64,000 nt of DNA from an uncultured Candidatus Saccharibacteria bacterium (GTDB taxonomy: Bacteria > Patescibacteriota > Minisyncoccia > Phycocordibacterales > DATGWK01), in NCBI GenBank assembly GCA_964428845.1, contig CAYRZH010000005.1, positions 1,647 through 65,646 of the forward strand, in the 5' to 3' direction. Made by a program: the position numbers and the translations under genes. How positions within the stretch are numbered: position 1 is the stretch's first letter; every line of letters starts with the position of its first letter. A model generated the notes under the pieces. It saw nothing but the letters and a program-made list of their open reading frames with translations, was not told the origin of the DNA and ran no database searches. Positions 5,422 to 57,829 of this stretch are shown here, in pieces.

Positions 5422-5461
5422 GTGAGCTGCCTGTCCACCGCTTTTTTTGTCTCAATTTTCC

Positions 5462-5470: not shown

Positions 5471-5490
5471 TTCGCCAAAGCACATTTTCT

Positions 5491-8677: not shown

Positions 8678-8695
8678 ATTTAAGGTTATATTCAC

Positions 8696-24416: not shown

Positions 24417-25103
24417 TCACCGGCCGACAGGCTTCCATCCACCGCGCACATCGGCGAAGGATGGGCGATGAGGATCGAGAACCCATTGGAGCAGGTAACA
24501 GTTGTGGTCGACGATTCGCGGGTCCCCTCGCCTCACTTCATCCGGGGTGAAGATTGTCCACTCACCCTCGAAACCCTCCACGTCCACCACAGAGACCTTC
24601 CTGCGGTGCATGATTGTCGCGCAAGCGCAACGTCTTTCGGGTTCGTCGTGGATCGTCACACCGAGGAACTGGATACCCGGTCTCATGGGGAGGAGATCAT
24701 CTCCGGCGTCACGGAAATCCCTTTCCAGGGCGCTTGCTGGCGTATCGAATCTTCGGATAACTGTGCACGGGCTGTGGTACAGCCCGGCCCACGCGTCGCC
24801 GACCTCGGTCGCCGGATCGCGAAGCTTCAGGGCAAATCCCAGAAACTCGTTACCCTTCCACACTTCATGAACGATCTGAACCGAAGCGCAGAATCCTGCC
24901 ATGCCGACGAGAAGTTCGAAGACCTCTTTCGGCACGCCGCCCATCGTTGTACTCCTGCTTCCATGCCGGGCCCGTTCGGTCAGCTCTGCGATGTGGGAGA
25001 TGATTGGGGCGAGCTCCACGAGCGGAATGTCCCTGATCATCCCCAGGGCACTAAGCGCCAGGGACTGGTGAGAGCTGTCTCGCGTCTGCGCAATCGTCTT
25101 CAT
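24417..25103 (-). CDS. Hypothetical protein, 228 aa (GC-rich cassette 3)
   Basis: ORF in ~57% G+C DNA, flanked on the same strand by a perfect consensus promoter and a terminator. AAAGAAAGGG SD-like site before the ATG. No family recognised. Confidence 0.5.
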   Translation of the reverse strand: MKTIAQTRDSSHQSLALSALGMIRDIPLVELAPIISHIAELTERARHGSRSTTMGGVPKEVFELLVGMAGFCASVQIVHEVWKGNEFLGFALKLRDPATEVGDAWAGLYHSPCTVIRRFDTPASALERDFRDAGDDLLPMRPGIQFLGVTIHDEPERRCACATIMHRRKVSVVDVEGFEGEWTIFTPDEVRRGDPRIVDHNCYLLQWVLDPHRPSFADVRGGWKPVGR

Positions 25104-25166
25104 GGCAACCCTTTCTTTGGTTGGTTGTGTTCGGGGCGAAAACCACGGGAACTCCTATCTTCCTGT

Positions 25167-25195
25167 ATTATAGTACTTCTATTGACTATTGTCAA
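25167..25195 (-). promoter_or_regulatory. Perfect consensus sigma70 promoter TTGACA-17-TATAAT (minus strand) for cassette 3
   Basis: On the minus strand TTGACA (25195-25190), a 17-nt spacer and TATAAT (25172-25167). The -35 is embedded in the partial palindrome TTGACaataGTCAA. Confidence 0.5.
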
Positions 25196-25211
25196 ATGAC
25201 CTAAAATTGTT

Positions 25212-30183: not shown

Positions 30184-31248
30184 TTAAGATCTGATATGTT
30201 TCCACTCAAGCGGCGTGCCACGCTCGATGTCTTTCTTTGCTGTCATGCCCATAACTTTGTGAATATTTTCCGGTGCCAGTCCAAAAGCTGGTCGGATACA
30301 TCGAACATTTTTTTTAGTAAATTTTTCGCCCATCTTTATATCCGAAACAGCAAAAAGTGAGCGACGATGCTCTGCCCCAATCTCTTCCTCCTTATCTCGT
30401 GCGTAGTTCGGTTTCCCTAGGGAGGATTCGACTTCTCTAACAGATTTAACTAATGATGCAAATTCTTTCGGCTCAAGTGAAAACGACGAATCAGGCCCAC
30501 CGTCAGAACGGGCGAGGGTCATATGTTTCTCGATTATGCTCGCGCCAAGAACTACCGCACCGAGAGAAACATTTATTCCAAGGGAGTGATCTGACAAGCC
30601 ACTTACTACTCCGAATCTTTTTGCAATATCTGGAATGGTCTTTAGATTCATCTTGCTTGGGTCGGCGGGGTAGATACTTACGCAATGAAGGACTGCGATC
30701 TCCTTTGTTCCAGATTTTTGTAAGGTCTTTATCGCTAAAGAGATTTCTTTGGCAGAAGCCATACCTCGCGCCAATATAACGGGCTTTTTGGTCTTGCCGA
30801 TCTTTTCTAGTAAAGGCAGGTCTGTAATCTCGTATGAAGCAACCTTATAGAGAGGAATTTTCAATTTTTCTAGAAAATCTACTGCTGTCTCGTCGAAGGG
30901 GGTTGAAAATACGACTAGACCTTTTCTTTCGGCGTACTTCTTTAGTTTCGCTTGCCATTTCCAGGGGGTATATGCTTCCTCGTATAGTTTATAAAGAATT
31001 TTATCTTTCCAAACATTATTTACCCTAACCCGGAAGTAGTCGTTGTCGCAGTTCAAAGTCATTGTGTCTGGTGTATATGTCTGAAATTTGATGGCATCAA
31101 CTTTTGCCAATGCCGCGGCATCGATTATTTCCATGGCTCGTTTCAGGCTTTGATTATGGTTGCCAGACATTTCTGCTACGATGAAGACCGGCTCTCCCGG
31201 GCCGATCCTCCTTTTACCCTTAGGTGTTTTAATCGTTATGTGTCTCAT
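30184..31248 (-). CDS. pseI: N-acetylneuraminate-synthase family enzyme, probable pseudaminic acid synthase PseI
   Basis: NeuB TIM-barrel (IFIVAEMSGNHNQSLKRAMEIIDAAALAKVDAIKFQTY) plus a C-terminal SAF domain. Co-operonic with pseB/pseC/pseH/pseF homologs. Confidence 0.7.
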   Translation of the reverse strand: MRHITIKTPKGKRRIGPGEPVFIVAEMSGNHNQSLKRAMEIIDAAALAKVDAIKFQTYTPDTMTLNCDNDYFRVRVNNVWKDKILYKLYEEAYTPWKWQAKLKKYAERKGLVVFSTPFDETAVDFLEKLKIPLYKVASYEITDLPLLEKIGKTKKPVILARGMASAKEISLAIKTLQKSGTKEIAVLHCVSIYPADPSKMNLKTIPDIAKRFGVVSGLSDHSLGINVSLGAVVLGASIIEKHMTLARSDGGPDSSFSLEPKEFASLVKSVREVESSLGKPNYARDKEEEIGAEHRRSLFAVSDIKMGEKFTKKNVRCIRPAFGLAPENIHKVMGMTAKKDIERGTPLEWKHIRS

Positions 31249-31259
31249 TTATCAGTATT

Positions 31260-31877
31260 TTACTTTTTCTCTAGGTATCTCTCGATAAGAAACAAATCCC
31301 TGGGTTCTCTGATAAGAATGGAATTTATTCCAGCTTCCTTGGCACCCCCTATGTCACAGACAATATCATCACCGATCATTAGGGCCTCGTGTGCCTCTAC
31401 CTCGAAAGAGGTTAGAACGTCCTTAAAAACTTTTTTGTGAGGTTTTTCAAACTCCTTACCATTTTCCTGTGCGAAGAAAAATTTATCAAAATATTGCTCC
31501 AACTGCAACGCCTGAACTTTTCTTTTTTGTACCTCTACTGCACCATTTGTGAGTATAGTGAGCTTATATTTTTTGGACAAACTTCTCAAAACCGGCTCTG
31601 CCTCTGGATAAAGTTTCAGCTCCGGTAAATGCCCACGGTAAACTCGGACGAGTTCCTCTATCGAAATATCATCGAGTGGAAACTTCTCTTTGAGTTCATC
31701 AAAATTTCTGCCGCGCCCATTTCCAAGGAAGGACTCACACAATGAATTAAAAATTTCTTCTTTTGATAGATTTCTTTTATTGCTTACATAGTCAGCAACA
31801 GCACGAAAACCGCTTAAAACATATTCATGTTCGCTCGAGAGGGTGTTGTCTAGATCAAAGATTAATAATTTTATCAT
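31260..31877 (-). CDS. HAD-superfamily hydrolase (subfamily IA-like)
   Basis: N-terminal LLIFDLDNTL motif I and ...MIGDDIVCDIGGAKEAG motif IV. Confidence 0.6.
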   Translation of the reverse strand: MIKLLIFDLDNTLSSEHEYVLSGFRAVADYVSNKRNLSKEEIFNSLCESFLGNGRGRNFDELKEKFPLDDISIEELVRVYRGHLPELKLYPEAEPVLRSLSKKYKLTILTNGAVEVQKRKVQALQLEQYFDKFFFAQENGKEFEKPHKKVFKDVLTSFEVEAHEALMIGDDIVCDIGGAKEAGINSILIREPRDLFLIERYLEKK

Positions 31878-32841
31878 GGGGAATGAACAGATCTTTGTTG
31901 TAACGCATCATGACCAAATCGGCCTGGAAACTTTTCTGCTCTGGCACTTTCTCGCCACGAAGAAGTCTCACAAGAAATTCAGCGCTGTTTCCTCCTGCAG
32001 CCAGCGCTAGGGGTGAACCTCCGCCGAAACGAGCTGGATTGGCTTCAAGGAAAAAAATCTTGCCATCTTTTGTTTTGAAACATTGAATTGTGTTGTGGCC
32101 GATAAGGCCAAGCGTCTGGCCGATTTTTTTTGTCAAAGCAATCATTTCTTTTTCATTTTTTGTAATCGTGACTTTTGATTCTCCACCCACGACTTTCAGT
32201 CGAATTCGCGGGATGGTCGAAATTGGCTTTCCAGAGAAATCAGCGAAATAGTCAATAGAGTATTCTGTGCCCTCGATTTTTTTCTGGATTATTTTTCCGG
32301 TGAGCTCTTGTTTTTTTAGTTCTTCGATGCTTCCAATCACCTCTACGCCTATACTAGCGGCACCAATTATGGGCTTTATGATGCAAGGGAATTGCAAATT
32401 TTTAGGTGGCTTGAGCCAGCTTTCTATGGGTCTTAAGTTTTTTGCTTTTAGAAATTTGTAAAACTTCCACTTATCATTGCAGATTGATGCGGCCTTTAAA
32501 GATGGCACCATGATCTTTGTACCCAATTTTTCAAAGCGCTTCTTGTTTTTCGCAAGATACATTACATCTTCGTCTCGGGTAGGGATAATCAGGGAAATTT
32601 TTTCTCTGGTAATGATTTCGGCCAGACGGGCAGGGAATTTTTTGCTATCCATGCGTGGCACTAGATATCCTTTATCAGCGAGGTAGAGACCGGGGCAAAA
32701 TGGGTCAATGTCGGTGGCGACGGTTTTACCCTCTACACCGAGAGATGAAAGAGCGGTGCGGAAGTGCTCAAAAAGGTGGCTCTTATTGCCGATACTTGTA
32801 AATAGAAAGTTTACGGACTTATTTGATTTTGCTTTTTTCAT
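31855..32841 (-). CDS. ATP-grasp domain protein
   Basis: 328 aa with an ATP-grasp-like layout (...CIIKPIIGAASIGVEVI..., ...FFLEANPARFGGG...). Possibly an amide-forming tailoring enzyme for the nonulosonate. Confidence 0.45.
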   Translation of the reverse strand: MKKAKSNKSVNFLFTSIGNKSHLFEHFRTALSSLGVEGKTVATDIDPFCPGLYLADKGYLVPRMDSKKFPARLAEIITREKISLIIPTRDEDVMYLAKNKKRFEKLGTKIMVPSLKAASICNDKWKFYKFLKAKNLRPIESWLKPPKNLQFPCIIKPIIGAASIGVEVIGSIEELKKQELTGKIIQKKIEGTEYSIDYFADFSGKPISTIPRIRLKVVGGESKVTITKNEKEMIALTKKIGQTLGLIGHNTIQCFKTKDGKIFFLEANPARFGGGSPLALAAGGNSAEFLVRLLRGEKVPEQKSFQADLVMMRYNKDLFIPHDKIINL

Positions 32842-33766
32842 GAGAGACTATCTGTCTTATGCCATCGGCAATGCTTATTTCCGGCGACCATCCGGTGGTG
32901 TCTTTGAGCCTGCTTATGTCGCCTCGACTGGCTTCAGGAAATATGGACTCATTGACTTCGGTAAATTTGGCTTCCGGAATTTCTTTTTGTACGAGCCCTG
33001 CGACCTCTGCGATCGTGTTGCTTTTGCCAAAACTCAAATTGATAACGCCAGTGGCATTCTTACAGATTGCCATTTTCATTAACCCTTTCGCCACATCGGT
33101 AGCGTGAATGTAATCAAATGAATTATTTTTGTCAAAGATTTTTAGTGTTTCGCCGCGAAGAGCACCACGTACCCAGCGCGAAATGATGTCTCGCGAATCT
33201 TTACCGTAGACCCGAAAGATCCTGGCATGCGCATAGGTAAATTTACCGCCCATCTGTTCGCTTAAAAATTCAATATCTCGCTCGGTTTGTAATTTGGCTA
33301 TGCCACATAGGTTGCGTGGTTCGATTGCTGAAGATTCACTAAGAATATTGTCCCGTCCTACAACGTTGTAGAGTGATTTATGGTAAATCAGATAACTTGA
33401 AGCAAAAATAATTTTTTTGAGTTCTTCACCTTGGACTATTCTTCGAAGAGTATAATGGGATGCCAAAATATTGTTGTAAAAATTACTTTCCCAAAAATCT
33501 AGACTCTCGGTACTACGCTCAAAATCGGCGGCAAGATGGAAAACATATTCTGGTTCGAAATGGAACGAAAATTGCTCGTCTCTGTGGGACAGGTCACATT
33601 GGAAATACTGAACATCACTAGGGAAGGCTCGAGGCCGCTCGAGCATGTCAACCGCGCGAACCACAGCTCCTTCGGCAGTAAGTAGGCCTACAAGTTCCTG
33701 GCCTATTACACCGGCTGCGCCAGTAACCAAAACTTTTTTATCCTTAAGTGTAACGAGATTTTCCAT
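32819..33766 (-). CDS. NAD-dependent epimerase/dehydratase (extended SDR)
   Basis: VLVTGAAGVIGQELV Rossmann motif and YxxxK (YGIAKLQTE). Confidence 0.65.
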   Translation of the reverse strand: MENLVTLKDKKVLVTGAAGVIGQELVGLLTAEGAVVRAVDMLERPRAFPSDVQYFQCDLSHRDEQFSFHFEPEYVFHLAADFERSTESLDFWESNFYNNILASHYTLRRIVQGEELKKIIFASSYLIYHKSLYNVVGRDNILSESSAIEPRNLCGIAKLQTERDIEFLSEQMGGKFTYAHARIFRVYGKDSRDIISRWVRGALRGETLKIFDKNNSFDYIHATDVAKGLMKMAICKNATGVINLSFGKSNTIAEVAGLVQKEIPEAKFTEVNESIFPEASRGDISRLKDTTGWSPEISIADGIRQIVSHEKSKIK

Positions 33767-33771
33767 TGAAG

Positions 33772-34320
33772 TTACTTCTTATTTATAATGGAGTGAATAA
33801 GCGAATCAGAAAAACGATTTTTTTTCCAAACATGATCGGGCAATCTAGCGTCTCGCTTGAAGCCAGATTTTTCTAAAAGATTGATGTGAAACTTCCTAAA
33901 TGCCCATGTTTCCGTAAAAATTTTGTGCAAAATGAGCTTTTTAAAGGCATAATCGCGGAGCATTACCATGGTTTCGAGAAAAAGCATTGAATATTCGGAG
34001 TGCCTTTTTTCTGTACCTGTTTCCAGGATAAATGATATTTCTCCGCGTTTATTTTCCCAATCAATATGCACAATACCGCAATACCCGATAAGTCTGCCAT
34101 TTTTGTCTAAAATTGAAAAGAGAACCTGGTTCTTATCCCTTTTGAGTTTTTTGTAAAATTTTTCCTGATCCTTGTCAGTCAGCGGTTTGCTCTGCCTCAA
34201 GATGTCCATTTGCTCATTACGCCATTTTTTAAGAAATGGTAAATCTTCTTTGAGTAGATTTGAGAGAATAATATGTCGGCCCAACGAAATTCTTTTTCTT
34301 TTCATAAATTTTAGTATCAA
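33772..34320 (-). CDS. pseH: GNAT N-acetyltransferase, PseH-like
   Basis: 182-aa GNAT whose N-terminal region (LKEDLPFLKKWRNEQMDILRQ) resembles PseH-type acetyltransferases. Located within the pse operon. Confidence 0.5.
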   Translation of the reverse strand: MILKFMKRKRISLGRHIILSNLLKEDLPFLKKWRNEQMDILRQSKPLTDKDQEKFYKKLKRDKNQVLFSILDKNGRLIGYCGIVHIDWENKRGEISFILETGTEKRHSEYSMLFLETMVMLRDYAFKKLILHKIFTETWAFRKFHINLLEKSGFKRDARLPDHVWKKNRFSDSLIHSIINKK

Positions 34321-35222
34321 ACTTTCCGCGAATGAGTAGCAAAACAGATAAGATTACGGCCGAGACCCATATCAGCCAACGCTTCATAAAATTTGTTAAC
34401 TTTTTTAGGTGAGGTTTTGTGCACAAGATTTTCTAACTCGACTCGCGCCTGATGACAAGATTTGCCCTTGGCTTTGTCGATAACGTAGTTGGTGTCTTTG
34501 TTAAGAAGATTTATATCGACAGGGAAGTCGGCCGTAAACCGCTCTGGGCGAAGTCCGGCTGCCTGAACGAGTGCCTCAAGCCCCGTTTTATTGAAGTAGG
34601 AAATATGATCTGGTATAACAATCCAAAAAGGACTTTTCACATAACCATGCTTGTACAAATATAGTTGTAGAATCGAAAAATCGTTTGGTACCACTACAAC
34701 TATAACTCCTTGATTATGAAGTAGTTTCTTGCAATCACCGAGCAATTGGAAAGGATTCAAAACATGCTCCAGAGTATGCTCCATGAAAATAACATCAAAC
34801 TTCTGTTTTTCCTTTATGAGTGATGGGATTTGCTCATAGATATCTCCTTTACGGATAAATGGCAGGCACCTTTTGTTGTGAGTCTTGGTGCCGGAACTAC
34901 TATAGTCGAGGCCTGTGACGGCAAAACCTTTTTTTCTGAAGTAATCTAGAGCCCAGCCTTCGCCGCAGCCAATGTCTAAAAAGCTAAATTTTTCACGGCG
35001 CATTGGTCCGAGCAACTCTTTTATTGTCAGATACTTATCGTCTAGCTTGTTTTTAAAAAAAATAATTTCATCTTTCGAATACGATTGTCTATAGTTACCC
35101 CTTGATTGTTCGTAATACTTATCTATATAGTACTGTTCCAACTCTTTAGGGTTTGGTTTATGTTTCAATTCAAAATAACCAAACTTATTTTTTCTGACAT
35201 TCCTGAAGAGATTATTGCCCAT
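34317..35222 (-). CDS. Class I SAM-dependent methyltransferase
   Basis: FLDIGCGEGWALDYF (motif I) and VTGLDYS. Confidence 0.6.
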   Translation of the reverse strand: MGNNLFRNVRKNKFGYFELKHKPNPKELEQYYIDKYYEQSRGNYRQSYSKDEIIFFKNKLDDKYLTIKELLGPMRREKFSFLDIGCGEGWALDYFRKKGFAVTGLDYSSSGTKTHNKRCLPFIRKGDIYEQIPSLIKEKQKFDVIFMEHTLEHVLNPFQLLGDCKKLLHNQGVIVVVVPNDFSILQLYLYKHGYVKSPFWIVIPDHISYFNKTGLEALVQAAGLRPERFTADFPVDINLLNKDTNYVIDKAKGKSCHQARVELENLVHKTSPKKVNKFYEALADMGLGRNLICFATHSRKV

Positions 35223-35241
35223 TTGGGGGTGGCTAGACTGT

Positions 35242-35913
35242 TTAAACTATTTTGCGGACGACACGAAAGGCTTCAGCACCAGTGAGACCGACTTCAATTC
35301 CACGATACTTCGAAAGTATTTCAATACCCTCAAGCGAACGAGGATGAGGATATTTTCGTAATTCGTCCCCATAGAAATTCATCAAAGCTTTTTTCTCCTC
35401 AACATATTTTGAGATATCAACGTAGTGATTTGGTTTAAAAACGCGGTGGTCCTTAATCTGCCATTCTGTGCAGGAAAGAACTTCAAAAGATAGAATTTCG
35501 GATACACAAAAGTTGGGTTGTGGTCGGCAAGCAGTTAACACTGCTCCGCAGGTTAGTCGGTGGTCTACATTCAGGTCATCGATATGATGTGTATAAACCA
35601 CATCGGGCTTAACTTCAGCAATAACCTTTTCTACTGCTTGTGCCAGACTGATCAGAGAAACCGTATCGAATTTGTTATCCGGGAAATTTTCTAGGAAAAG
35701 TTTGGCACCCAATTTATCAGAGACACCTCTAGCTTGAGAAAATCTTTTTTCAGGATCACTTACAGATCCCCGAGAATCTTCTCCGTTTGCTAGGATTAGA
35801 ATGGATATAGAATCACCGCGGTCACGGTGAACGCAAAGCGTGCCGCCAGCGCCGAGAACCTCATCGTCTGGGTGCGCGACTACAGCCAAAATTTTTTTAT
35901 TTTTTTCCATCAT
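35242..35913 (-). CDS. PIG-L/LmbE-family N-acetylglucosaminyl deacetylase
   Basis: ILAVVAHPDDEVLGAGGTL and HxDH (HHIDDLNVDH) motifs. Confidence 0.65.
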   Translation of the reverse strand: MMEKNKKILAVVAHPDDEVLGAGGTLCVHRDRGDSISILILANGEDSRGSVSDPEKRFSQARGVSDKLGAKLFLENFPDNKFDTVSLISLAQAVEKVIAEVKPDVVYTHHIDDLNVDHRLTCGAVLTACRPQPNFCVSEILSFEVLSCTEWQIKDHRVFKPNHYVDISKYVEEKKALMNFYGDELRKYPHPRSLEGIEILSKYRGIEVGLTGAEAFRVVRKIV

Positions 35914-36631
35914 TTTTTATTGGTGAAATTTTAACTTTTGCAGTTACGGTATCTCCCGTAAATTCTGCTTCACTAAATTCAAATCTCTGTTCTCCAACGT
36001 CCAAAAACGCCCTTGGGTAACCATCAGCATCAAGCATTCTTATAAAATCATATAGCATTCTTCCTGACAAATCACCCAGGATTCTACTTTGTTCGGGCTT
36101 CCTGCGTTTGAAAGTAAAACCACGACCTCGTTGGGGTTTTGGCTTCGGTTGCTTCAAAAGTATTTCGCTCATCATTTCATAGACGATGGCAGAAATCTTA
36201 TAAAATATATCTTGAGCAGAGCCTCGACTCATGTCAACGGGCTTTTTTAAATAAATCGGTCCAGTATCAAGCCCTGCCTCGACGCGAAGTGCGGAAATTT
36301 TTACTTTGTAAATTCCTCTAACGATGTGGTTCTGGATCGGGCTACCGCCGCGACCGTATGGCAGGTTTGCTTCATGAAATACAACACACTCAAAATTTTC
36401 ATAAATTTCAGGCGGGATTATCCAAGACCAATGTGGGAAAAATACAAACCTCGGTTTTATTTTAGAAAGACGTTCAAAAGTAAGTTTTTTGGGCGATGTT
36501 ATGAGAAGTTTCCGGTAACCCTTCGGGACTTTCCATTCACTGAACCTTTTTATGTTCCAGGGTCGAATCGTCGCTACGACAATATTGTCGAGGTTAGCAT
36601 TATCTTTTTGCCTTTTTGTTTTTAAGCTCAT
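35897..36631 (-). CDS. Formyltransferase-domain protein (Fmt N-terminal-domain-like)
   Basis: ...VVFHEANLPYGRGGSPIQNHIVRG... matches the formyl_trans_N catalytic region (the Asn/His/Asp triad context). Confidence 0.5.
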   Translation of the reverse strand: MSLKTKRQKDNANLDNIVVATIRPWNIKRFSEWKVPKGYRKLLITSPKKLTFERLSKIKPRFVFFPHWSWIIPPEIYENFECVVFHEANLPYGRGGSPIQNHIVRGIYKVKISALRVEAGLDTGPIYLKKPVDMSRGSAQDIFYKISAIVYEMMSEILLKQPKPKPQRGRGFTFKRRKPEQSRILGDLSGRMLYDFIRMLDADGYPRAFLDVGEQRFEFSEAEFTGDTVTAKVKISPIKNDGKK

Positions 36632-37317
36632 TTCAGCAGTTTATATTTTATTTCAGCAATTTTCCAATCCTCCTCATTATCAATGTCCTGCATTTCTGAT
36701 TCTGGTATTGGTATAGATCTAGTATTATCAGTGAAGATCTTTTTTTGATTCAAGAAATTTTTCACATTTAGGTAAAAAAACTGTCCTGTATCATGATATG
36801 CAGGTTCCAAATCCTGTGAGCGCACCACAGCATTTTCTGGCCACATCATTTTTAATTTTCCAAACTCGTCGATCCTCAAGGCTCTCTGAATTGGGTAAGA
36901 AAAACGGGCGACTGGCAAAACTGAATCGGCACCAGTCTCTACTATCAAATCCATTGCTTTCTTGAGATTTTCAATTTTTAAAAAGGGAGCGGTCGGGTAA
37001 ATACAGCAGGCCAAATCAAATTCTCGGCCAAGACTTTTGTACCGAACGAGAACTTCTTCCATAACGTCGGGGATCTGTGCAAGATCACCCGAATTCTTCT
37101 CTGACCTAAAGAAGGGGACTTTGGCACCAAAACCTAAGGCGACTTCGGCGATCTCTTTATCATCTGTTGAGACCATTACTTCGTCAAAAAGTCCGCTCGT
37201 TAGTGCGGCATCAATAGAATATTTTATAATCGGCTGTCCGGAAAAGAATTTTATATTTTTCTTCGGAATTCTTTTGCTACCGCCTCGCGCAGGTATAATG
37301 GCAACTATCTTTTTCAT
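36628..37317 (-). CDS. pseF: CMP-nonulosonate (pseudaminic acid) cytidylyltransferase, PseF/NeuA-like
   Basis: IVAIIPARGGSKRIPKKNIKFFSGQPII N-terminal motif of the acylneuraminate cytidylyltransferase family. Confidence 0.7.
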   Translation of the reverse strand: MKKIVAIIPARGGSKRIPKKNIKFFSGQPIIKYSIDAALTSGLFDEVMVSTDDKEIAEVALGFGAKVPFFRSEKNSGDLAQIPDVMEEVLVRYKSLGREFDLACCIYPTAPFLKIENLKKAMDLIVETGADSVLPVARFSYPIQRALRIDEFGKLKMMWPENAVVRSQDLEPAYHDTGQFFYLNVKNFLNQKKIFTDNTRSIPIPESEMQDIDNEEDWKIAEIKYKLLK

Positions 37318-37323
37318 AGGATG

Positions 37324-38442
37324 TTATTTTCTCGAATAATAGAAAGATTTTATTGCATTGATAATATGAGAAGCTTCTCTCGATGTGACGTTTGTGTGGA
37401 GTGGCAAGGTCAAACAGCGTGAAAAATAGTCCAGAGAATAGGGTGCTTTGTCAGTGTAGAAGCCATTTTTTCGGTAGTATGGTTGAGAAAAGACTGGGGG
37501 ATAATGGTAGTTAATTCCGATCTTAGCGGCTGATAAAAAAGTGGCTAGTTCTTTTTTGATTTTTTCATTTTCTGTCAGGATGACAAAAATATGCCATCCG
37601 GAAACGCTGTGTTCTGGTTCTTTTGGTAGCGAGATTTCTTTTACACTACTTAAACCCTTTTTATATTGGGCGACAAGTTTACGTCGTTTTGCGATAAACT
37701 GATCAAGTCGTCTAAGCTGACTCAATCCCAATGCACATTGCATATCGGTCAAACGATAATTGAAACCGAGCTCTTGCATAACATTCACACCATCTTTATT
37801 TTTTGCTACGCCGTGACTTCGAAGAAGTAATAATTTCTCATATATATTTTTGTTTTTTGTCACGACGGCTCCTCCTTCGCCAGTCGTTATCGGTTTAATA
37901 GCGTGGAAACTAAAGCATATGGCACTTGAGGACAGGGATCCAATTTTTTTGCCCCTATATCTAGAGCCGAGCGCATGTGATGCATCCTCGATTATTTTAA
38001 GATTGTGTTTTTTCGCTATCTTAATAATAGAGTTCATTTCGCAGGGACCTCCGGCAAAATGGACAGGTACAATAGCCTTAGTTTTTTTGGTAATTAAACT
38101 GGAGATTTTTTTCTCGTCGATGTTGTAAGTGTCTGGACGGATATCACAGAATATCGGTTTGGCACCAACGGCAAGTAACATATTGGAAGTGGCGACAAAT
38201 GTATTGGGGGTTGTTATAACCTCATCCCCGGCCTTTAGACCACAAGCCAGGTAGGCTAAGTGTAGGGCACTGGTGCCATTATTTACTGCCACGACGTAGG
38301 GCACTCCTATATAAGCGGCTAGAGCATTTTCGAATTCTTTTACTCTTGGACCTTGGGTCAGGAAGTCTGATGTCAAAGCGGCACTTACGGCTCTAATATC
38401 ACTGTCGTTTATATTTTGCCGCGCATACGGAACATATTTCAT
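37324..38442 (-). CDS. pseC: DegT-family aminotransferase, PseC-like
   Basis: Start at MKYVPYARQNI (ATGA overlap with the pseB stop). PLP-dependent fold with the FSFHAIKPITTGEGG lysine region. Confidence 0.75.
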   Translation of the reverse strand: MKYVPYARQNINDSDIRAVSAALTSDFLTQGPRVKEFENALAAYIGVPYVVAVNNGTSALHLAYLACGLKAGDEVITTPNTFVATSNMLLAVGAKPIFCDIRPDTYNIDEKKISSLITKKTKAIVPVHFAGGPCEMNSIIKIAKKHNLKIIEDASHALGSRYRGKKIGSLSSSAICFSFHAIKPITTGEGGAVVTKNKNIYEKLLLLRSHGVAKNKDGVNVMQELGFNYRLTDMQCALGLSQLRRLDQFIAKRRKLVAQYKKGLSSVKEISLPKEPEHSVSGWHIFVILTENEKIKKELATFLSAAKIGINYHYPPVFSQPYYRKNGFYTDKAPYSLDYFSRCLTLPLHTNVTSREASHIINAIKSFYYSRK

Positions 38443-39401
38443 AAAATATCCAGAAGCTTCTTTTTGTTTAGCCACGAAGTATTTGTGTCGCTCGTGAAGC
38501 GAAAGTTCGGTTTCACTTTTTTCCCACGTTTTAGGTGCTTTTCAAACTTTTTGTCTCCCAGAAACTCCGGCAGGATAACATAATATTTTTCTAATTCGGC
38601 GCTGTGGCGTGCCTCCTGTTCCGTCAGTAAAATTTCATGAGTTTTTTCTCCATGTCTGATGCCGATAACTTCCTTCTTGGCGCGTGGCGCCATAGCATCA
38701 AAGAGGGCAGTTAGTTTCATGCTAGGTATTTTCGGTACAAAAATCTCTCCACCCTCCATATGCTCAAGTGCATAAAGTACCAAATCGAAAGTTTGCTCCA
38801 AGGTGATCCAGAACCGAGTCATCTTGACGTCTGTGATCTGAACCTTTTTTGCGTTCGGGTTATTTTTTAATGTCTCGACGATACTACCACGACTCCCGAT
38901 GACGTTGCCGTATCTCACACAACCGAATTTTGTCTCACCATTTGTGTAGGAGTTGCCACTGATGAATAATTTTTCTGCACATAGTTTGGTTGAACCATAT
39001 AAATTGCTAGGGTGGACAGCTTTATCTGTGGAAACAAGCAAAACCCGGCCCACTTTCTTATTGATAGCCGCTTCTATAACATTCTGACTTCCCAAGATAT
39101 TGGTTTTGACTGCCTCGAAGGGATTGTATTCGAGCATTGGTACTTGTTTGAGGGCGGCGGCATGGACGACGATATCAACACCATCGAATGCACGTTCGAG
39201 GCGTGAGATATCTCGAACGTCCCCCAAGAAGAAACGAACTCGTGGGTCGTTTAACTCTTTTTGTATGTGAAATTGTTTAAGTTCGTCACGACTAAAAATA
39301 ATCAACTTTTTAGGCTTAAAGTTGGCAAGAATATGAGTGGCAAAACTTTTGCCAAATGAGCCGGTACCGCCAGTGATTAAAATAGTCTTATTATTAAGCA
39401 T
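38439..39401 (-). CDS. pseB: UDP-N-acetylglucosamine 4,6-dehydratase (inverting), PseB/FlaA1-like
   Basis: MLNNKTILITGGTGSFGKSF...FSRDELKQ closely resembles FlaA1/PseB. Short SDR of 320 aa. Confidence 0.8.
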   Translation of the reverse strand: MLNNKTILITGGTGSFGKSFATHILANFKPKKLIIFSRDELKQFHIQKELNDPRVRFFLGDVRDISRLERAFDGVDIVVHAAALKQVPMLEYNPFEAVKTNILGSQNVIEAAINKKVGRVLLVSTDKAVHPSNLYGSTKLCAEKLFISGNSYTNGETKFGCVRYGNVIGSRGSIVETLKNNPNAKKVQITDVKMTRFWITLEQTFDLVLYALEHMEGGEIFVPKIPSMKLTALFDAMAPRAKKEVIGIRHGEKTHEILLTEQEARHSAELEKYYVILPEFLGDKKFEKHLKRGKKVKPNFRFTSDTNTSWLNKKKLLDIL

Positions 39402-39471
39402 AAATTCTCGATTTACCCCTTAGACTTCACATAATAACTCTGATTTTACTTGATGTCTATTAGAAATTTGT

Positions 39472-39504
39472 AAAAAAAGACCACCAAGTTTTATCTCGGT
39501 GGTC
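39472..39504 (-). terminator. Rho-independent terminator of GC-rich cassette 4 (minus strand)
   Basis: On the minus strand GACCACCgagauaaaacuuGGUGGUC followed by TTTTTTT. A TAGACA-17-TATTAT promoter for pseB follows immediately at 39454-39426. Confidence 0.5.
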
Positions 39505-39531
39505 GACGGAAGTGATTTGTAGATGGTCAAT

Positions 39532-40569
39532 TCAGATCAATGTGGCAACCATTCTCCGTATCGCTTGACCCCTCTCTTCGAGCTTGGGAACAGGGAAGGC
39601 TGATTCTTGGTGTGCCCTCATGGATTCGAATCCGCCCGGGTGCAGCAGCCTTTTGATGGTACAAGCTAGTTTATCGACAGAACCAAAGTAGACCCCCTCT
39701 GAAGCACCAAGTTCTACCAGCTTCCATGGGTCCTTACCGATTGTAGCTGGCCGGCCTTTGAGTGCGACGGTGGTACAGAAGTCAATGACGGGTTTACGCA
39801 GGCAAGCTGCCTGGATGCCTATTGTCGAATTGAACTCTACCACCATATCGCACCCAATGACTATCTCGGAGGTGGGGATTCCGACGTGTTTACCAACGAC
39901 CTTTACCGGACAGCCGGCATACCGCCAGACATCCTCGTACAAAGATGGGCTATTCAGATCACCAGGATGAAATCCAATCAACAGTTCGATCTGCGAACCA
40001 AACCTTCGATTGAGCGAACCAACTGCTTCTCCGGCTGCTCCAAAAAGCAGCATGTTAAGGGCAAGATACTTGTCGCCTGGGCAAAGGATGAGTTTGCGGT
40101 CATCGAAGACCGAGAGTCGCTCTCGTGCCTGAACCCGTGTCTGTACGGGGAAAGCAAACTCCTCCCATCTTGGATTTCCCGTCGCTACGATGTTGGCTTT
40201 CGGGAAATAGGTGGCTGCATCCCGTCCTTCATCCGCGTTGATGACAAAGAGTGTTTCCACGAAATCTCGGACTGGCTCAAAAGCCGGTAGTCGGTGATTA
40301 CCAAATGTGTCGGCATAAAGACTGCAACGTACCCCGATTCGATGAGCTTCTGTTACGGCCATCACCTCGTCGTCAGACAGGTTGGACATTGTTACCACCA
40401 AGTTGTTAGCTGAGGCGATTTCGTGCTTGATAGCCTCGGTTGGCAGAGCTTCTGCTCGTCCACCGCGCAGGAAAGACACAACCTCGACACCACGCTCTTG
40501 GAGTACTTCTCCTAACATTCGCATAACTTCTGACTGCGCAAAGTCACCGGCCACAAGCACAGTTTTCAC
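39532..40569 (-). CDS. GT-B-like sugar transferase with weak LpxB (GT19)-like motifs (GC-rich cassette 4)
   Basis: GTG start 6 nt after an AGGAGG SD. N-terminal VLVAGDFAQSEVMRMLGEVLQERG resembles the LpxB N-terminus (ALVAGEASGDILGAGLIRALK). The LILCPGDK and CDMVVEFNSTIGIQAACLRKPVI regions fit a GT-B C-domain. About 50-55% G+C. From memory only. Confidence 0.4.
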   Translation of the reverse strand: MKTVLVAGDFAQSEVMRMLGEVLQERGVEVVSFLRGGRAEALPTEAIKHEIASANNLVVTMSNLSDDEVMAVTEAHRIGVRCSLYADTFGNHRLPAFEPVRDFVETLFVINADEGRDAATYFPKANIVATGNPRWEEFAFPVQTRVQARERLSVFDDRKLILCPGDKYLALNMLLFGAAGEAVGSLNRRFGSQIELLIGFHPGDLNSPSLYEDVWRYAGCPVKVVGKHVGIPTSEIVIGCDMVVEFNSTIGIQAACLRKPVIDFCTTVALKGRPATIGKDPWKLVELGASEGVYFGSVDKLACTIKRLLHPGGFESMRAHQESAFPVPKLEERGQAIRRMVATLI

Positions 40570-40645
40570 CAAACACCTCCTTCTTCCTGGTTTTAAGGTT
40601 TTTTATCTCGGAATAGGCACAAAAAATTACCCATGGTCCTATAGA

Positions 40646-40675
40646 TTTATACCACAACTTTATGAGTGGAGTCAA
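40646..40675 (-). promoter_or_regulatory. Sigma70 promoter TTGACT-18-TATAAA with extended -10 (TGgTATAAA), minus strand, for cassette 4
   Basis: On the minus strand TTGACT (40675-40670) then ...TGTGGTATAAAT. Confidence 0.4.
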
Positions 40676-40715
40676 TCTAACCAAAACTGAAACAATACCG
40701 TTTGATCTATCTACC

Positions 40716-41759
40716 CTAATCGACGAGCTTGATATTGGATGAATAAACTGGGTTCTTCTGGCAGAAATCCTTAAATGACGGAGATGCGTTTTTAATTTCC
40801 AGTTTTGTATACTTCGCACCAAACATAGAGTCTGTATACTGAAACTCAAGTACCAGTCGATGATCTTTTTTAAGAGGAGTACCTTTATGCCAACATTTTG
40901 TGTCTCCGGCAAATACAGTCCCGGCTGGGGCACAAACTTCAATAAAATCTTCTTTGGTATAATGTCCCTTTAGATCAGAATCAGGAATGCGAGCGTACCC
41001 TCTTTTTAGTAGATTTGCTGGTTTTTTCCCAGGTAGGTGTGAACCTCTAATGTAGCGGTGAGGGCCGGTGTCTGGATTGACATCAGTCAGGTAAATAAAA
41101 ATTTTGAGCCATTTGATCCTATCCATATCAAAATGATAAAGCTGTGCCGCTTCAGAAGAAGCTTCTTTTAGAAAAGACGTACTCCACCACATAGCTGGAA
41201 AATCGAAAATCGGCTCACATCCCAAATAGTTTCTAGCGATATTTATAAAAACAGGGTCCATTATGAGGGATTGAATATCTTTGTTATTGACTAGATCAAT
41301 TACGTCGAATCTATATATCTCGGCAAGGGGGTGAGCCGGATCATAAACGATCTTGGTGTCGTAAGCTGGAGGTATTTTTGCTCCGCTCGTTCCCGCGTAC
41401 TGGTATAAATTTGAAACAGTCTCTTGAGGTAGTTTTTTATCAAAGAGTGCGTATCCGTCTCTATTTAGGGTACTATTGAAATTTTTAAATCTGATTTCGT
41501 CGAATGTACCAATTACCCCTTGGAGCGGAACATCAACGGACTGGGGTGGATTCTTGGCCGCTATTTTTCGATGCTCATCTTCGCTAAACTTGCCGTTGGT
41601 GGCACAGTAAAGCTGGATCAGTGCAGAATAAGATTTTGGTGGTGTTATTTTTGTTTCTTCAAAAACTTTGTAACCCTGGTAGAAATCGTTATAGGCGCCC
41701 TTGCGTTTATAAGTTTCGTGAGCAATTTTATTTTTAATCTTTTTAAACAGGGTATTCAT
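40716..41759 (-). CDS. PhyH-family Fe(II)/2-oxoglutarate dioxygenase-like protein
   Basis: HxD (YHFDMD) ...H (PHRYIRGSH) pattern typical of phytanoyl-CoA dioxygenase-like hydroxylases. Confidence 0.5.
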   Translation of the reverse strand: MNTLFKKIKNKIAHETYKRKGAYNDFYQGYKVFEETKITPPKSYSALIQLYCATNGKFSEDEHRKIAAKNPPQSVDVPLQGVIGTFDEIRFKNFNSTLNRDGYALFDKKLPQETVSNLYQYAGTSGAKIPPAYDTKIVYDPAHPLAEIYRFDVIDLVNNKDIQSLIMDPVFINIARNYLGCEPIFDFPAMWWSTSFLKEASSEAAQLYHFDMDRIKWLKIFIYLTDVNPDTGPHRYIRGSHLPGKKPANLLKRGYARIPDSDLKGHYTKEDFIEVCAPAGTVFAGDTKCWHKGTPLKKDHRLVLEFQYTDSMFGAKYTKLEIKNASPSFKDFCQKNPVYSSNIKLVD

Positions 41760-41770
41760 AATTTTTGGTG

Positions 41771-42481
41771 TTATGTAAGTAATTGTGAAATCACGACAGT
41801 ACTCAAATCATTCTTGTTGTAATGATCATATTCAAAAACGATACGATTTTCAGAAACAGAACTTATTAGCTTTTTTAAGTCGTCCGTGGAATTGAGGTTG
41901 TTGACTCGCACAGCGCCCAATCCCTCTCTGTCCTGTAAAGGATTGTGTTGTATGCCGATTCCTAGTAGGCCTCCAGGTTTGAGAATTCGTTGGCATTCCT
42001 TTACAACTCCTACAGGATCTTTTGAATAACTAATCATCCATCCTAAAAGTACAACGTCATATGTTTTGTCAGCAAACTCTGTGCGGTGGATGTCGCCGAC
42101 AATAATGTTATCAGAATAAGAAAACAAATCTAGCCCATATGTATCTTTAAATCTGTATGCTCGTAACCAATAGATATCATCTTCTGTTCGACAGCCGACC
42201 ACTAGTATTTTTTTCCTATCTCGATCCTTAGTGAAGTAGGCGATAATCGGGTAGATCAGGAGACCCATGCGTCCACCACACCCGAAAACTGCCCTAGGAA
42301 AATTGAATGCAGATAAATTGTGAGAGATAGTTTGTTCCCCAATTTTGTCGGACTTGAGACTATCAAAACGCAAGTGTTTCTTGAGTAAAAAATGTCTAGT
42401 TCGAACGAACCAATATCTTAGTCTGTAAAATCGGAGTAGGGGGGTAAACAATCGGTCAGAGATATTAGAGAGCGTTTTCAT
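41771..42481 (-). CDS. SAM-dependent methyltransferase
   Basis: KILVVGCRTEDD (motif I-like) and ILKPGGLLGIG (motif III-like). Confidence 0.5.
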   Translation of the reverse strand: MKTLSNISDRLFTPLLRFYRLRYWFVRTRHFLLKKHLRFDSLKSDKIGEQTISHNLSAFNFPRAVFGCGGRMGLLIYPIIAYFTKDRDRKKILVVGCRTEDDIYWLRAYRFKDTYGLDLFSYSDNIIVGDIHRTEFADKTYDVVLLGWMISYSKDPVGVVKECQRILKPGGLLGIGIQHNPLQDREGLGAVRVNNLNSTDDLKKLISSVSENRIVFEYDHYNKNDLSTVVISQLLT

Positions 42482-43748
42482 TATGGATTTTTAAAGTGTA
42501 CGGTAATGAAACAAAACCGATATTCTCATGAGCGTCATTGCTTGATGGAAGTATGTTTAACATAGGAATATTTACATTTTCGTCAACGACATCATAAAAA
42601 ATGGAAGCCTCTTTGTTGGCTAGAGAAAAATATAAAGAGTACTGGCCTGGTCGAAGTGTTTTTTTGGGAATTGAAACACTGAAGGATAAGCTTTGGCCAG
42701 CATGGATCGCTTTTTCGGAAACTAAAGTTTTTATATTGGAAACGATTTCCTTCGATAGGGGCTGTCGCAAGGCCATATAGAATAGCAGGCTATCTATGTC
42801 TTTTTCTGCCACAACCGTAAACTCAAATGTAATGTCCTCGTTAAAATTAAAATCCCAACATTCTTTTCCACGTTTTGTTCCTTGGGCCTTATGAAAAGTT
42901 GTACCGCCGGCTGTCCTCTTCAGCCTGTTTTTCAATGACACTGCCCCCAAGTTTTTCGTCTGCGATGAGATAATTCCGTTGTATGTGGAAATAACTTTTC
43001 TTGTGTCACCTGAATCTACAACACGACCATTCTTTAATAGTATCGCTCTCGTACACAAGGACTGAACAGCCGCTATGTTGTGACTGACGAAAAGTATTGT
43101 TCTCCCATCTTTTCTTGTAATCTCATCCATCTTTCCAAGACATTTTTTTTGAAATTCTGCATCACCAACGGCGAGCACTTCGTCGACGAGAAGTATATCT
43201 GGTTCCATGTGTGCGGCTACCGAAAAAGCCAGACGCACATACATACCACTTGAATAATATTTGACCGGGGTATCGAGAAATTTTTCAATACCGGCAAAGG
43301 CTACAATCTCGTCGAACTTGTTGGCAATCTCGTGTTTTTTCATTCCCAGAATTGCGCCGTTTAGAAAAATATTTTCTCTGCCCGTGAGTTCTGGATGGAA
43401 ACCAGTACCAACTTCGAGGAGTGAACCAACACGTCCACGTAAGACAACCTCGCCTTCAGAAGGCGGGGTAATTTGAGACAAGATTTTAAGAAGGGTAGAT
43501 TTTCCTGCACCGTTCGGCCCAATAATACCAACGACCTCACCCTTATTGACCGTGAAGTCAATATTTTTTAAGGCCCAAAACTCCTCTTTCTTTTCAAGAC
43601 CCACAGTGCGTTTGGCTTTATGTTTTAGATAGGAAAAGGGACGTCTAGCAATATTTGCAATAACATCACGTAACGCAATATAACCTCCGCGCATGTGGGC
43701 AATGTCATATTTTTTGCCAAGATTTCTGACTTCGATAATGGGAGACAT
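42465..43748 (-). CDS. wzt: ABC transporter ATP-binding protein, Wzt/TagH-like (O-antigen/teichoic-acid type exporter), with C-terminal extension
   Basis: Start at MSPIIEVRNLGKKY. Walker A GIIGPNGAGKSTLL, signature YSSGMYVRLAFSVA and Walker B ILLVDEVLAVGD. The C-terminal ~190 aa form a candidate glycan-binding domain. Confidence 0.75.
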   Translation of the reverse strand: MSPIIEVRNLGKKYDIAHMRGGYIALRDVIANIARRPFSYLKHKAKRTVGLEKKEEFWALKNIDFTVNKGEVVGIIGPNGAGKSTLLKILSQITPPSEGEVVLRGRVGSLLEVGTGFHPELTGRENIFLNGAILGMKKHEIANKFDEIVAFAGIEKFLDTPVKYYSSGMYVRLAFSVAAHMEPDILLVDEVLAVGDAEFQKKCLGKMDEITRKDGRTILFVSHNIAAVQSLCTRAILLKNGRVVDSGDTRKVISTYNGIISSQTKNLGAVSLKNRLKRTAGGTTFHKAQGTKRGKECWDFNFNEDITFEFTVVAEKDIDSLLFYMALRQPLSKEIVSNIKTLVSEKAIHAGQSLSFSVSIPKKTLRPGQYSLYFSLANKEASIFYDVVDENVNIPMLNILPSSNDAHENIGFVSLPYTLKIHNENAL

Positions 43749-43756
43749 ATTTTTAC

Positions 43757-44581
43757 TTAAATGATATCTGCAAAATAACGTTCTGTTTTTTTGAAATATG
43801 TAATACCAATTATAAAAATGACAGAGCAGCCTATAAATGAAGCCAGAATCAAAGCCCAATTGATCGGAGTTGTGCCCAACAGTGCTGCTCGAGCGCTTTG
43901 GATAATACCCATCATTGGGTTTAGAGCGAGGATTTTGGAATACGCCCCGGCAATTGAGGCTGGATATATAACTGGTGTGACAAACAAAAGAAGTTGTATG
44001 AAGAAAGGTAAAGCATAACGAACATCTCGATACTTAACATTGACCGACGAAAGAAATAAACCGAGACCAACCGCTGTCATAAAGGTTAAAATAAGAAGAA
44101 GGGGTAGGATAAGAAATCCTCCGAGGTGGGGGGTATAGCCGTAGTAGATCATAAGACCCACGAGGATCACTGATGCGATTAAAAAATCTACAAGTTTCGT
44201 AAACACAGTTGAAATCGGCAGAAGTAGTCTTGGAAAATAGACTTTGGTGACGATTGCTTTATTCGCCAAAAGTGAATTGCTCGTTTCTCCCAAAGCGTCG
44301 GAAAAAAACTGCCAGAATAGAAGACCTACATAAACGAAAACAGGATAGGGAACTCCATCAGAAGGGATCTGGGCAAGTTTCCCAAAAAAAATGGTAAAGA
44401 CCACCATGGTAATGAGTGGTTGAAGGATTGACCAAAGTACACCGATTGCTGTTTGTTTGTATCTGACCTTCAGATCTCTCCAGGTGAAAAAATATAAGAG
44501 CTCCCTGTAATACCAAAGCTCTTTTAGGTCTCGGAAGCTGAATATTTTTTTGGGTTTGATTACCGTGGTTTGGACCTGCAT
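43757..44581 (-). CDS. wzm: ABC-2 type transporter permease, Wzm/TagG-like
   Basis: 274 aa with 6 TM helices. The N-terminus IFSFRDLKELWYYRELLYFFTWRDLKVRYKQT is typical of Wzm. Confidence 0.7.
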   Translation of the reverse strand: MQVQTTVIKPKKIFSFRDLKELWYYRELLYFFTWRDLKVRYKQTAIGVLWSILQPLITMVVFTIFFGKLAQIPSDGVPYPVFVYVGLLFWQFFSDALGETSNSLLANKAIVTKVYFPRLLLPISTVFTKLVDFLIASVILVGLMIYYGYTPHLGGFLILPLLLILTFMTAVGLGLFLSSVNVKYRDVRYALPFFIQLLLFVTPVIYPASIAGAYSKILALNPMMGIIQSARAALLGTTPINWALILASFIGCSVIFIIGITYFKKTERYFADII

Positions 44582-57001: not shown

Positions 57002-57017
57002 AAAGCGCGCCGTCTTC

Positions 57018-57662: not shown

Positions 57663-57692
57663 GACACACTCTCCATTCAAAAGAACTTTCTT

Positions 57693-57713
57693 ATGGTGAT
57701 ACGTTATCACCAT
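57693..57713. promoter_or_regulatory. Perfect 9-3-9 palindrome ATGGTGATA-cgt-TATCACCAT in the leader of the cassette-5 gene (operator-like or leader hairpin)
   Basis: Lies between the -10 (57729-57724) and the start codon (57662) on the minus strand. Confidence 0.35.
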
Positions 57714-57723
57714 TTCTGCTACT

Positions 57724-57752
57724 ATGATAGCATATTTGACTCTTTTTGTCAA
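57724..57752 (-). promoter_or_regulatory. Sigma70 promoter TTGACA-17-TATCAT (minus strand) for cassette 5
   Basis: On the minus strand TTGACA (57752-57747), a 17-nt spacer and TATCAT (57729-57724). Confidence 0.45.
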
Positions 57753-57829
57753 TAAAAAAGATATATCAAAAGCGCCAATCTTAGGCGTATAATTCGAGTA
57801 ACTTTTGAACTTATGATACAATCGCCGTT

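Follow-up and report, generated by a model that had tools for sequence, protein, structure and literature searches.

Surface structures are decorated with pseudaminic acid (Pse) and related nonulosonic acids, which influence how hosts and partners are recognised, and bacteria of the candidate phyla radiation (CPR) live attached to other cells. In the pseudaminic acid pathway the free sugar is released by PseG, a UDP-sugar hydrolase with a GT-B fold, while for sialic and legionaminic acid the equivalent release is catalysed by enzymes of the Epimerase_2 family. A full-text literature search yielded no paper pairing nonulosonic acids with Saccharibacteria, Patescibacteria or the candidate phyla radiation. 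The 64,000-nucleotide stretch analysed here (hereafter the window; contig CAYRZH010000005.1 of an uncultured Candidatus Saccharibacteria bacterium) contains a complete, tailored pse operon of a CPR organism, and next to it a gene for a conserved enzyme of a family for which no Pfam or NCBIfam model exists and which comprises at least 348 sequence clusters. This gene is the only open reading frame (ORF) in the interval 39402-40715, which further includes two intergenic spacers (numbering is that of the whole window), and its product is a concrete candidate for the missing step of nonulosonic acid synthesis in CPR bacteria.

Two further groups of described enzymes are relevant to the comparison. 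The TagF-like enzymes, described as membrane-binding, incorporate two conserved histidines, one of which is the catalytic base in the N-domain (TagF H444/TarL H300) (PMC10901376). The Tannerella forsythia members of the BFO_1060 family have been shown genetically to be transferases of pseudaminic or legionaminic acid (Leg), and combine an HP motif with a TagB-like domain (PMC5420450).

The AlphaFold model of the protein, built with an alignment, has a pLDDT of 91.5 and a pTM of 0.88, and comprises two Rossmann-like domains, with strands and helices alternating in both halves. Foldseek comparison matched it, with a probability of 1.0, to 230 GT-B chains at E <= 1e-3. The highest-ranking matches were UDP-GlcNAc 2-epimerases (E 6e-10; TM score 0.65-0.69), interleaved with members of the glycosyltransferase (GT) families GT4 (MshA, BshA) and GT28 (MGD1), while the lipid-A-disaccharide synthase LpxB followed behind all three groups at rank 27 (E 1.7e-8), with a root mean square deviation of 21 A. 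The protein is thus confidently predicted to adopt the GT-B fold, in agreement with an earlier sequence-only reading of this DNA, which had proposed a GT-B/LpxB-like sugar transferase. That reading had also likened the protein to LpxB (GT19), an assignment for which the searches described below provide no support.

Scans against Pfam and NCBIfam returned no model for the protein, even at E <= 10, and single-sequence searches of PHROGs and of PDB sequences were likewise without a match. Fifteen full-length or partial relatives, the best of which is 52 % identical and all of which are unannotated, were found in a set of 5.8 billion proteins, and a profile of these relatives recovered 348 representative clusters at E <= 1e-30 (taken here as the minimum size of the family) and 1882 at E <= 1e-3. 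All relatives that carry an organism name belong to the Patescibacteria (Saccharibacteria, Parcubacteria and Buchananbacteria). When the profile was compared against PDB sequences a single significant match, CapG, was obtained (E 1.9e-4 with 15 sequences; 6.8e-7 with 96 sequences), and LpxB was missing from the matches at E <= 1. Using hhalign, the alignment of 96 sequences could be matched to Escherichia coli WecB with 88 % probability over 266 columns covering both domains, at approximately 14 % identity. The equivalent comparisons with E. coli LpxB were restricted to the C-domain and remained at noise level (E 0.082 over 55 columns; 0.023 over 107 columns). Those with Bacillus thuringiensis PseG were not significant (E 0.044 and 0.002), and B. 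thuringiensis PseG, MurG and the GT4 proteins of the window all fell at E values between 0.002 and 0.3. LpxB/GT19 membership is therefore refuted at the family level, on the basis of the absent Pfam and NCBIfam matches, the noise-level hhalign values and the lack of a PDB profile match.

The closest remote relatives are TagF-like proteins encoded in CPR loci, which lie nearer to the family than WecB, LpxB or PseG. A divergent 396-aa paralogue, encoded on the opposite strand in locus L010 (8769-9959, minus strand; homologous loci are referred to by L numbers), bridges the family to Pfam Glyphos_transf, with a score of 30.8 bits against this model (cut-off 22.1), an hhalign match to the family at 98.8 % probability (E 4e-17) and 79 bits with the family hidden Markov model (HMM). 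The other TagF-like neighbours align to the family at E 5e-8 to 2e-4, with the one in L002 scoring 30 bits with the family HMM, which does not match the Epimerase_2 proteins of the same loci. Furthermore, a 577-aa protein encoded after pseI in the window aligns to the family at E 8e-7 over its HP-containing C-domain. The Epimerase_2 model (PF02350) does not match the window protein and matches one of the fifteen family members (E 9e-5), while the Glyphos_transf model (PF04464) matches neither the protein nor its 14-15 relatives at E <= 10. By these alignments the family is an unnamed GT-B branch located between the TagB/TagF-like transferases and the 2-epimerases.

Conservation was counted over 96-154 members which are 25-50 % identical, and both domains are strongly conserved among them. 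The only invariant histidine in 96 sequences is H202 in the C-domain, which forms an HP motif with P203 (>= 90 % conserved). Conserved at >= 80-90 % are D10, G38, G61, S63, E69, D88, F98, G132-N133-P134, E137, R150, K168, P203-G204-D205, Y212, D242, S249, A255, R259, P261, W283, Q322 and G335. In the alignment with WecB, H202 falls on H213 and Q254, which is Glu in most members, on the ribose-binding E296. The C-terminal peptide highlighted in the sequence-only reading as resembling a C-domain, CDMVVEFNSTIGIQAACLRKPVI (residues 241-263), corresponds to the nucleotide-binding strand-helix and aligns to WecB 'LTDSGGIQEEAPSLGKPVL', which bears out that comparison. Of the WecB catalytic set D95/E117/E131/H213, however, only the counterpart of H213 is kept. 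Two of the three acids are clearly lost, with D95 replaced by the conserved S63 and E131 falling on a non-conserved position, and E117 falls on A87, next to and not on the conserved D88. In the region where the TagF N-domain base would be expected the family has the conserved D88 instead, and the CPR TagF-like neighbours likewise lack a WHG-type histidine. No conserved [DE][DE]G (D/E-D/E-G) motif is present in the family consensus. The alignments indicate that the protein retains the nucleotide- and phosphate-binding half of these enzymes, while the chemistry of its N-domain is probably of its own kind, with a carboxylate as base. The family is acidic, with a median isoelectric point (pI) of 5.6, while all eleven glycosyltransferases of the window have values of 8.9-9.7, and across the loci the transferases are basic with the exception of one TagF-like protein in L001 (pI 6.65). 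As a discriminator of soluble and membrane proteins pI is only partly useful, with many soluble enzymes of this genome also being basic.

The pse operon lies downstream of the gene and is co-directional with it. It encodes, in order, PseB, PseC, PseF, a formyltransferase-like protein, a PIG-L deacetylase, a methyltransferase, a PseH-like GNAT protein, an SDR, an ATP-grasp and a HAD protein and PseI, with NCBIfam scores of 447 bits for PseB (cut-off 408), 285 for PseF (206) and 455 for PseI (340). PseI is followed by the 577-aa BFO_1060-like protein and a GT2 enzyme. The additional tailoring genes (formyltransferase-like, PIG-L deacetylase, methyltransferase, SDR, ATP-grasp and HAD) suggest that the operon makes a modified form of pseudaminic acid and not plain Pse5Ac7Ac, and the formyltransferase-like gene is missing from the corresponding operon of L017, which is otherwise orthologous. 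Models were scanned against 31 of the 33 ORFs of >= 150 aa between 7.4 and 46.8 kb and against four ORFs between 1 and 7.4 kb. Among these ORFs no PseG was found with NCBIfam or Pfam, and no lpx genes were seen. A tblastn search with B. thuringiensis PseG as query was also without a match in the whole window and in 25 loci, while the positive control, B. thuringiensis PseH, recovered the window GNAT protein at E 9e-9. On the basis of these ORF scans, and of tblastn over the window and the 25 loci, an overlooked canonical PseG was rejected. A second cluster, in L026, is also without a detectable PseG, though its PseB, PseC and PseI score above cut-off. As far as models and searches can recognise the enzymes, the PseG step is the only one left unfilled in these two independent pse clusters (window/L017 and L026), and each holds both a family member and a separate BFO_1060-type protein. 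These proteins, which lie beside the pse genes of each complete cluster (at 1689-3113 in L026), are large, of the GT-B type and equipped with an HP motif. They match the BFO_1060 family weakly, and are candidate Pse transferases of CPR bacteria.

The gene recurs in several genomic contexts. In L017 the operon is arranged as in the window (PseB, PseC and PseF 79, 69 and 70 % identical, respectively), and a family gene, 63 % identical, occupies the corresponding position, with a terminator between it and pseB. This junction is also found on the short contig L020, where the family gene is 70 % identical, so that the order gene-terminator-promoter-pseB is seen in the window and two other contigs. 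Of the family gene, the L020 junction (830-1512) retains just the final third; behind it come the terminator, a promoter-like site and approximately 60 pseB codons until the frame ends. Unrelated low-GC sequence flanks the junction on both sides, as in a decayed copy or an assembly chimera. The tie to the adjacent glycan pathway, which the sequence-only reading had considered, is supported by this conserved gene order. In L026 the family member, 36 % identical to the window protein, lies inside a pse cluster arranged differently from that of the window, in the order BFO_1060-like, PseB, PseC, FemAB-like, LamG, family member, AKR, NeuB, cytidylyltransferase, DUF218, PseH-like GNAT and PseI. The closest Saccharibacteria relatives (43-52 % identity) are found in a conserved array of GT4, GT47, GT9 and TagF-like genes, with PseB-PseC approximately 8 kb downstream. 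This locus, found in L001, L004, L006, L007, L022, L023 and L025, encodes DUF4015, a VirD4/TraG-like ATPase, four or five GT4 enzymes, a GT47, a 277-aa protein of unknown function and the family member, followed by two GT4 enzymes, a 294-aa protein of unknown function, a GT9, two TagF-like proteins of approximately 620 aa, PseB and PseC. Glycan loci do not usually have a coupling-protein-like ATPase at the head, as this one does. In L002, L010 and L018 the family gene occurs with Epimerase_2, NeuB and/or CMP-sugar synthetase genes, while in L024, L028 and L029 it is a solitary copy surrounded by housekeeping genes, pse genes being absent up to 10 kb away. In total, nonulosonic acid genes are present in the examined flanks of 11/18 non-redundant family loci. 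A tandem second copy, split over two frames, is found in L012 (Parcubacteria; 8496-10881).

We tentatively favour, at somewhat below even chances, the reading that the protein is a soluble hydrolase of nucleoside diphosphate (NDP)-sugars which substitutes for PseG. The acidic GT-B enzyme would bind its nucleotide-activated sugar in the cleft between the two Rossmann-like domains and hydrolyse the UDP-2,4-diacylamido-2,4,6-trideoxy-L-altrose made by PseB, PseC and the PseH-like enzyme, and the freed sugar would then be condensed with phosphoenolpyruvate by PseI. His202-Pro203, Lys168 and Ser249/Thr250 may bind the phosphates and assist the departure of the nucleotide, Gln254 may contact the ribose, and a conserved carboxylate of the N-domain (Asp10, Glu69 or Asp88) may activate the water. 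We favour this reading because the PseG step alone is unfilled in two independent pse clusters, because each such cluster holds a separate candidate Pse transferase in addition to the family member, and because PseG is itself a GT-B protein, with Epimerase_2-family proteins performing the counterpart step for sialic and legionaminic acid. The acidity of the family among uniformly basic window glycosyltransferases, and the conservation of both domains as if for one small substrate, point in the same direction. The protein would fill exactly the step missing in the window and L026, and it is encoded beside pseB (window, L017, L020) or within the cluster (L026), where no other PseG candidate was detected. 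More broadly, and with a little more reserve, the Patescibacteria-specific family may represent a non-orthologous replacement of PseG, perhaps a general NDP-sugar hydrolase which frees hexosamine for NeuB-type synthases in CPR bacteria.

Several observations weigh against this assignment. The similarity to PseG is not significant and its model (TIGR03590; UDP-2,4-diacetamido-2,4,6-trideoxy-beta-L-altropyranose hydrolase) is not matched, and the loop after strand 1, which carries the catalytic histidine in PseG, has the conserved D10 in this family. GT-B proteins are mostly transferases, and the genome may hold a PseG at another place, or one that has diverged beyond detection. The nearest non-family sequences are the TagF-like proteins of L010 and L002, the Saccharibacteria gene lies within a run of glycosyltransferase genes at some distance from pseB, copies without pse neighbours and tandem or adjacent paralogues (L010, L012) exist, and an intrinsic terminator separates the gene from pseB. 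The observations on relatives, placement, copies and terminator also favour a transferase of the TagB/TagF-like, HP-motif GT-B branch, using CMP-Pse or a derivative, a CDP-polyol or a UDP-sugar as nucleotide-activated donor. Such an enzyme would add one residue to an envelope glycan or protein, with the product being exported by the Wzm/Wzt transporter encoded upstream. This is a close rival, in our view only a little less likely than the hydrolase. It is consistent with the base rate among GT-B proteins, the alignments to CPR TagF-like proteins (E 4e-17 to 2e-4) and to the BFO_1060-like window protein, the TagF-like genes adjoining family members in L002, L008 and L010, and the HP motif, which is typical of sialyl- and nonulosonate transferases using cytidine nucleotides. 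Those transferases, however, combine HP with the D/E-D/E-G motif that the family consensus lacks. The HP of the C-domain is shared with the L010 paralogue, whereas other CPR TagF-like neighbours have Pro-Gly or Gln-Pro at the aligned position, and the invariant catalytic histidine of the TagF-like N-domain is without an invariant counterpart, H202 being the only invariant histidine. The TagB/TagF-like CDP-polyol phosphotransferases share a GT-B catalytic domain with the family and are its frequent genomic neighbours, but they are basic and membrane-binding where the family is small (~345 aa), single-domain and acidic. The T. forsythia Pse/Leg-derivative transferases BFO_1060/Tanf_01245 are GT-B/TagB-like proteins with an HP motif from CMP-nonulosonic acid loci, whereas the window protein has no NCBIfam match, no conserved D/E-D/E-G or DXD and is much shorter. 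No family member reaches a Pfam or NCBIfam transferase model, each complete pse cluster already encodes another candidate Pse transferase, and under a transferase function the missing PseG step stays unexplained.

The other GT-B candidates fare considerably worse than a PseG-replacing hydrolase. The 2-epimerases of the Epimerase_2 family (WecB/MnaA, CapG and the hydrolysing NeuC/LegG) provide the top structural and PDB-sequence matches, one of the fifteen family members matches their Pfam model, and they share TGNP/TGNT and the HP histidine, with the STxGI(E/Q)AA of the family lying on SGGIQEEA. A working, very divergent UDP-HexNAc 2-epimerase, whether hydrolysing or not, is nevertheless highly improbable, and was rejected as the WecB catalytic acids are not kept. 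In addition to these substitutions the N-terminal Arg/Lys motif (R10/K15) is replaced, bona fide Epimerase_2 genes adjoin family members in L002, L010 and L018, and the Pse pathway needs no 2-epimerisation. The notion of an LpxB-type synthase from a lipid-A-bearing bacterium, inserted as a foreign cassette, can be given almost no credence. It draws on the N-terminal VAGDxxxSE, a glycine/acidic loop loosely similar to the AGExSGD of LpxB, on the Foldseek match and on GC values that are high for the window. In addition to the searches already described, it is contradicted by a host and named homologues that all belong to the CPR, by the conserved position beside pseB, by a GC excess that is found family-wide and by the lack of lipid-A genes among the window ORFs scanned.

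Were the protein to replace PseG, the pathway gap would be closed, the annotation of hundreds of CPR genomes improved and an extra enzyme made available for the chemo-enzymatic synthesis of Pse. A committed step of nonulosonic acid synthesis would then have a new enzyme family, derived from the TagF/2-epimerase branch and not from the MurG-like branch of PseG. A transferase function would instead make the family a new, soluble offshoot of the TagB/TagF-like enzymes. In both cases the misleading suggestion of a lipid-A gene picked up by a CPR bacterium falls away.

The unusual composition noted in the sequence-only reading is real. The gene has a GC content of 0.522 against 0.424 for the window, and a GC content at third codon positions (GC3) of 0.52 against a mean of 0.40 over 49 other window ORFs (z = 2.4), with just two ORFs exceeding it. 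The protein is Lys-poor and rich in Arg, Ala and Gly, in contrast to its neighbours. The overall GC of the homologues exceeds that of their own locus by 4 to 13 percentage points in 14/14 loci tested, and their GC3 lies above the locus mean at z > 2 in 10/15 loci. Since high GC recurs in the homologues relative to their own loci, the composition is largely a family trait and not the mark of a recent insertion. GC at first codon positions (GC1) is always higher in the homologues, reflecting their acidic, Lys-poor composition, and amino acid composition accounts for GC1 but not for GC3. The GC3 excess reaches z values of up to 7.8 in some loci (e.g. L007, L023, L025 and L028) and is also seen where the neighbours are housekeeping genes (L028, z = 5.2); it may reflect recurrent transfer, codon choice linked to expression or another cause. 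No flanking repeats beyond chance were found around the gene, the best being an 11-nt direct repeat, TTTTATCTCGG, at 39489 and 40601 (approximately 0.4 such pairs expected in 1.8 kb), no mobility genes adjoin it, and no homologues were found in plasmids, phages or viral contigs. A mobile cassette was rejected on these three grounds, and the claim of a foreign insertion at this site is not supported in its stated form, in view of the exclusively patescibacterial named homologues, the retained position beside pseB and the family-wide GC excess. An RNA gene as the cause of the high GC was rejected in the absence of an Rfam or tRNA match in the window, as was a defence or phage protein, with no PHROG match and a single spurious PADLOC match (E 0.014).

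The gene already lay beside pseB before the window, L017 and L020 diverged. A neighbour-joining tree places these three together as sister to the clade with the Saccharibacteria synteny and not inside it, a topology which is compatible with an old transfer between CPR lineages without requiring it. An old transfer from another CPR lineage, e.g. a Saccharibacteria-like one, after which the gene was kept beside pseB, is less likely than not. The window MurC is closest to Parcubacteria/Paceibacterota, yet the nearest full-length relatives of the protein (43-52 %) include the Saccharibacteria metagenome-assembled genome L007 and its syntenic set. The family tree shows the Saccharibacteria members at dispersed positions and the GC3 of the gene is elevated, which also speaks for such a transfer. 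The placement beside and not within the Saccharibacteria-synteny clade, the chance-level repeats and the lack of adjacent mobility genes speak against it, and the taxon labels are few.

The gene itself is genuine and intact. The peptides quoted in the sequence-only reading, VLVAGDFAQSEVMRMLGEVLQERG (residues 5-28) and that of the C-domain, are both present, as is its 346-aa ORF, which begins at an alternative in-frame TTG at 40572 (39532..40572). The GTG start, giving 345 aa, is preferred because its spacing fits the Shine-Dalgarno sequence, which is found at the 6-nt distance previously described. It also agrees with the MK(I/T)VLVAGD N-termini of the homologues, and its product is 100 % identical to NCBI protein P0001 (345 aa), the sole exact database match. 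Of the transcription signals that had been proposed for the gene and for pseB, the terminator is well supported (-17.4 kcal/mol; z = -4.9 against shuffles). Both promoter-like sites are present but no commoner than chance (two found in the region against 1.9 expected in shuffled sequence), and are consensus matches without evidence of function; the promoter scan did not list the TTGACT site, given that its final base is A. The terminator provides stronger evidence than these sites. Terminators unrelated to it in sequence, each a non-homologous hairpin with a U-run, hold the same position behind the homologous genes in L017 and L020.

Table 1. Coordinates of the gene, its signals and other features discussed in the text (window numbering unless a locus is given)
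Feature	Position	Strand	Basis or description
GT-B protein coding sequence	39532..40569	-	345 aa from GTG 40569; ORF list, P0001 identity, AlphaFold, family alignments
Shine-Dalgarno AGGAGG	40576..40581	-	6 nt before GTG 40569
Promoter-like site of the gene	40646..40675	-	TTGACT (40675-40670), 18 nt, TGgTATAAA (40654-40646); extended -10 type; consensus match only
Intrinsic terminator	39472..39504	-	hairpin 39504-39479, then T7; 10-bp stem, 6 G-C pairs, 6-nt loop
pseB promoter-like site	39431..39459	-	TAGACA (39459-39454), 17 nt, TATTAT (39436-39431); consensus match only
pse operon	30184..39401	-	downstream, co-directional; Pfam and NCBIfam scans
577-aa GT-B protein, candidate Pse transferase	28438..30171	-	HP motif (RVHPRE); NCBIfam BFO_1060-family E 7.5e-4 (weak)
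Upstream module	40716..44581	-	co-directional; PhyH-like dioxygenase, methyltransferase, Wzt and Wzm ABC exporter subunits
Wzy_C/TPR protein, window	44645-46840	+	
Wzy_C/TPR protein, L010	12046-14247		
Wzy_C/TPR protein, L024	1678-3738		
High-GC island	20241-20798	+	
High-GC island	24417-25103 / 24468-25199	- / +	
High-GC island	4557-5537 / 4626-5291	- / +	
High-GC island	56740-57821	-	

Three otherwise dissimilar contexts (Table 1) share, no more than a few kb from the family gene, a gene for a membrane protein of approximately 700 aa with a Wzy_C (O-antigen-ligase-like) domain and TPR repeats. The window also contains other short islands of high GC (0.48-0.60 against approximately 0.42), with one ORF each, which no RNA gene explains. 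The 228-aa ORF of one of these islands has no match in the PDB, and the resemblance of a 185-aa island ORF to Nudix proteins is non-significant (PDB E 0.4). At least two of the islands share the Lys-poor, Arg-rich make-up of the GT-B protein (K 1.6-2.6 %; R 7.6-9.2 %).

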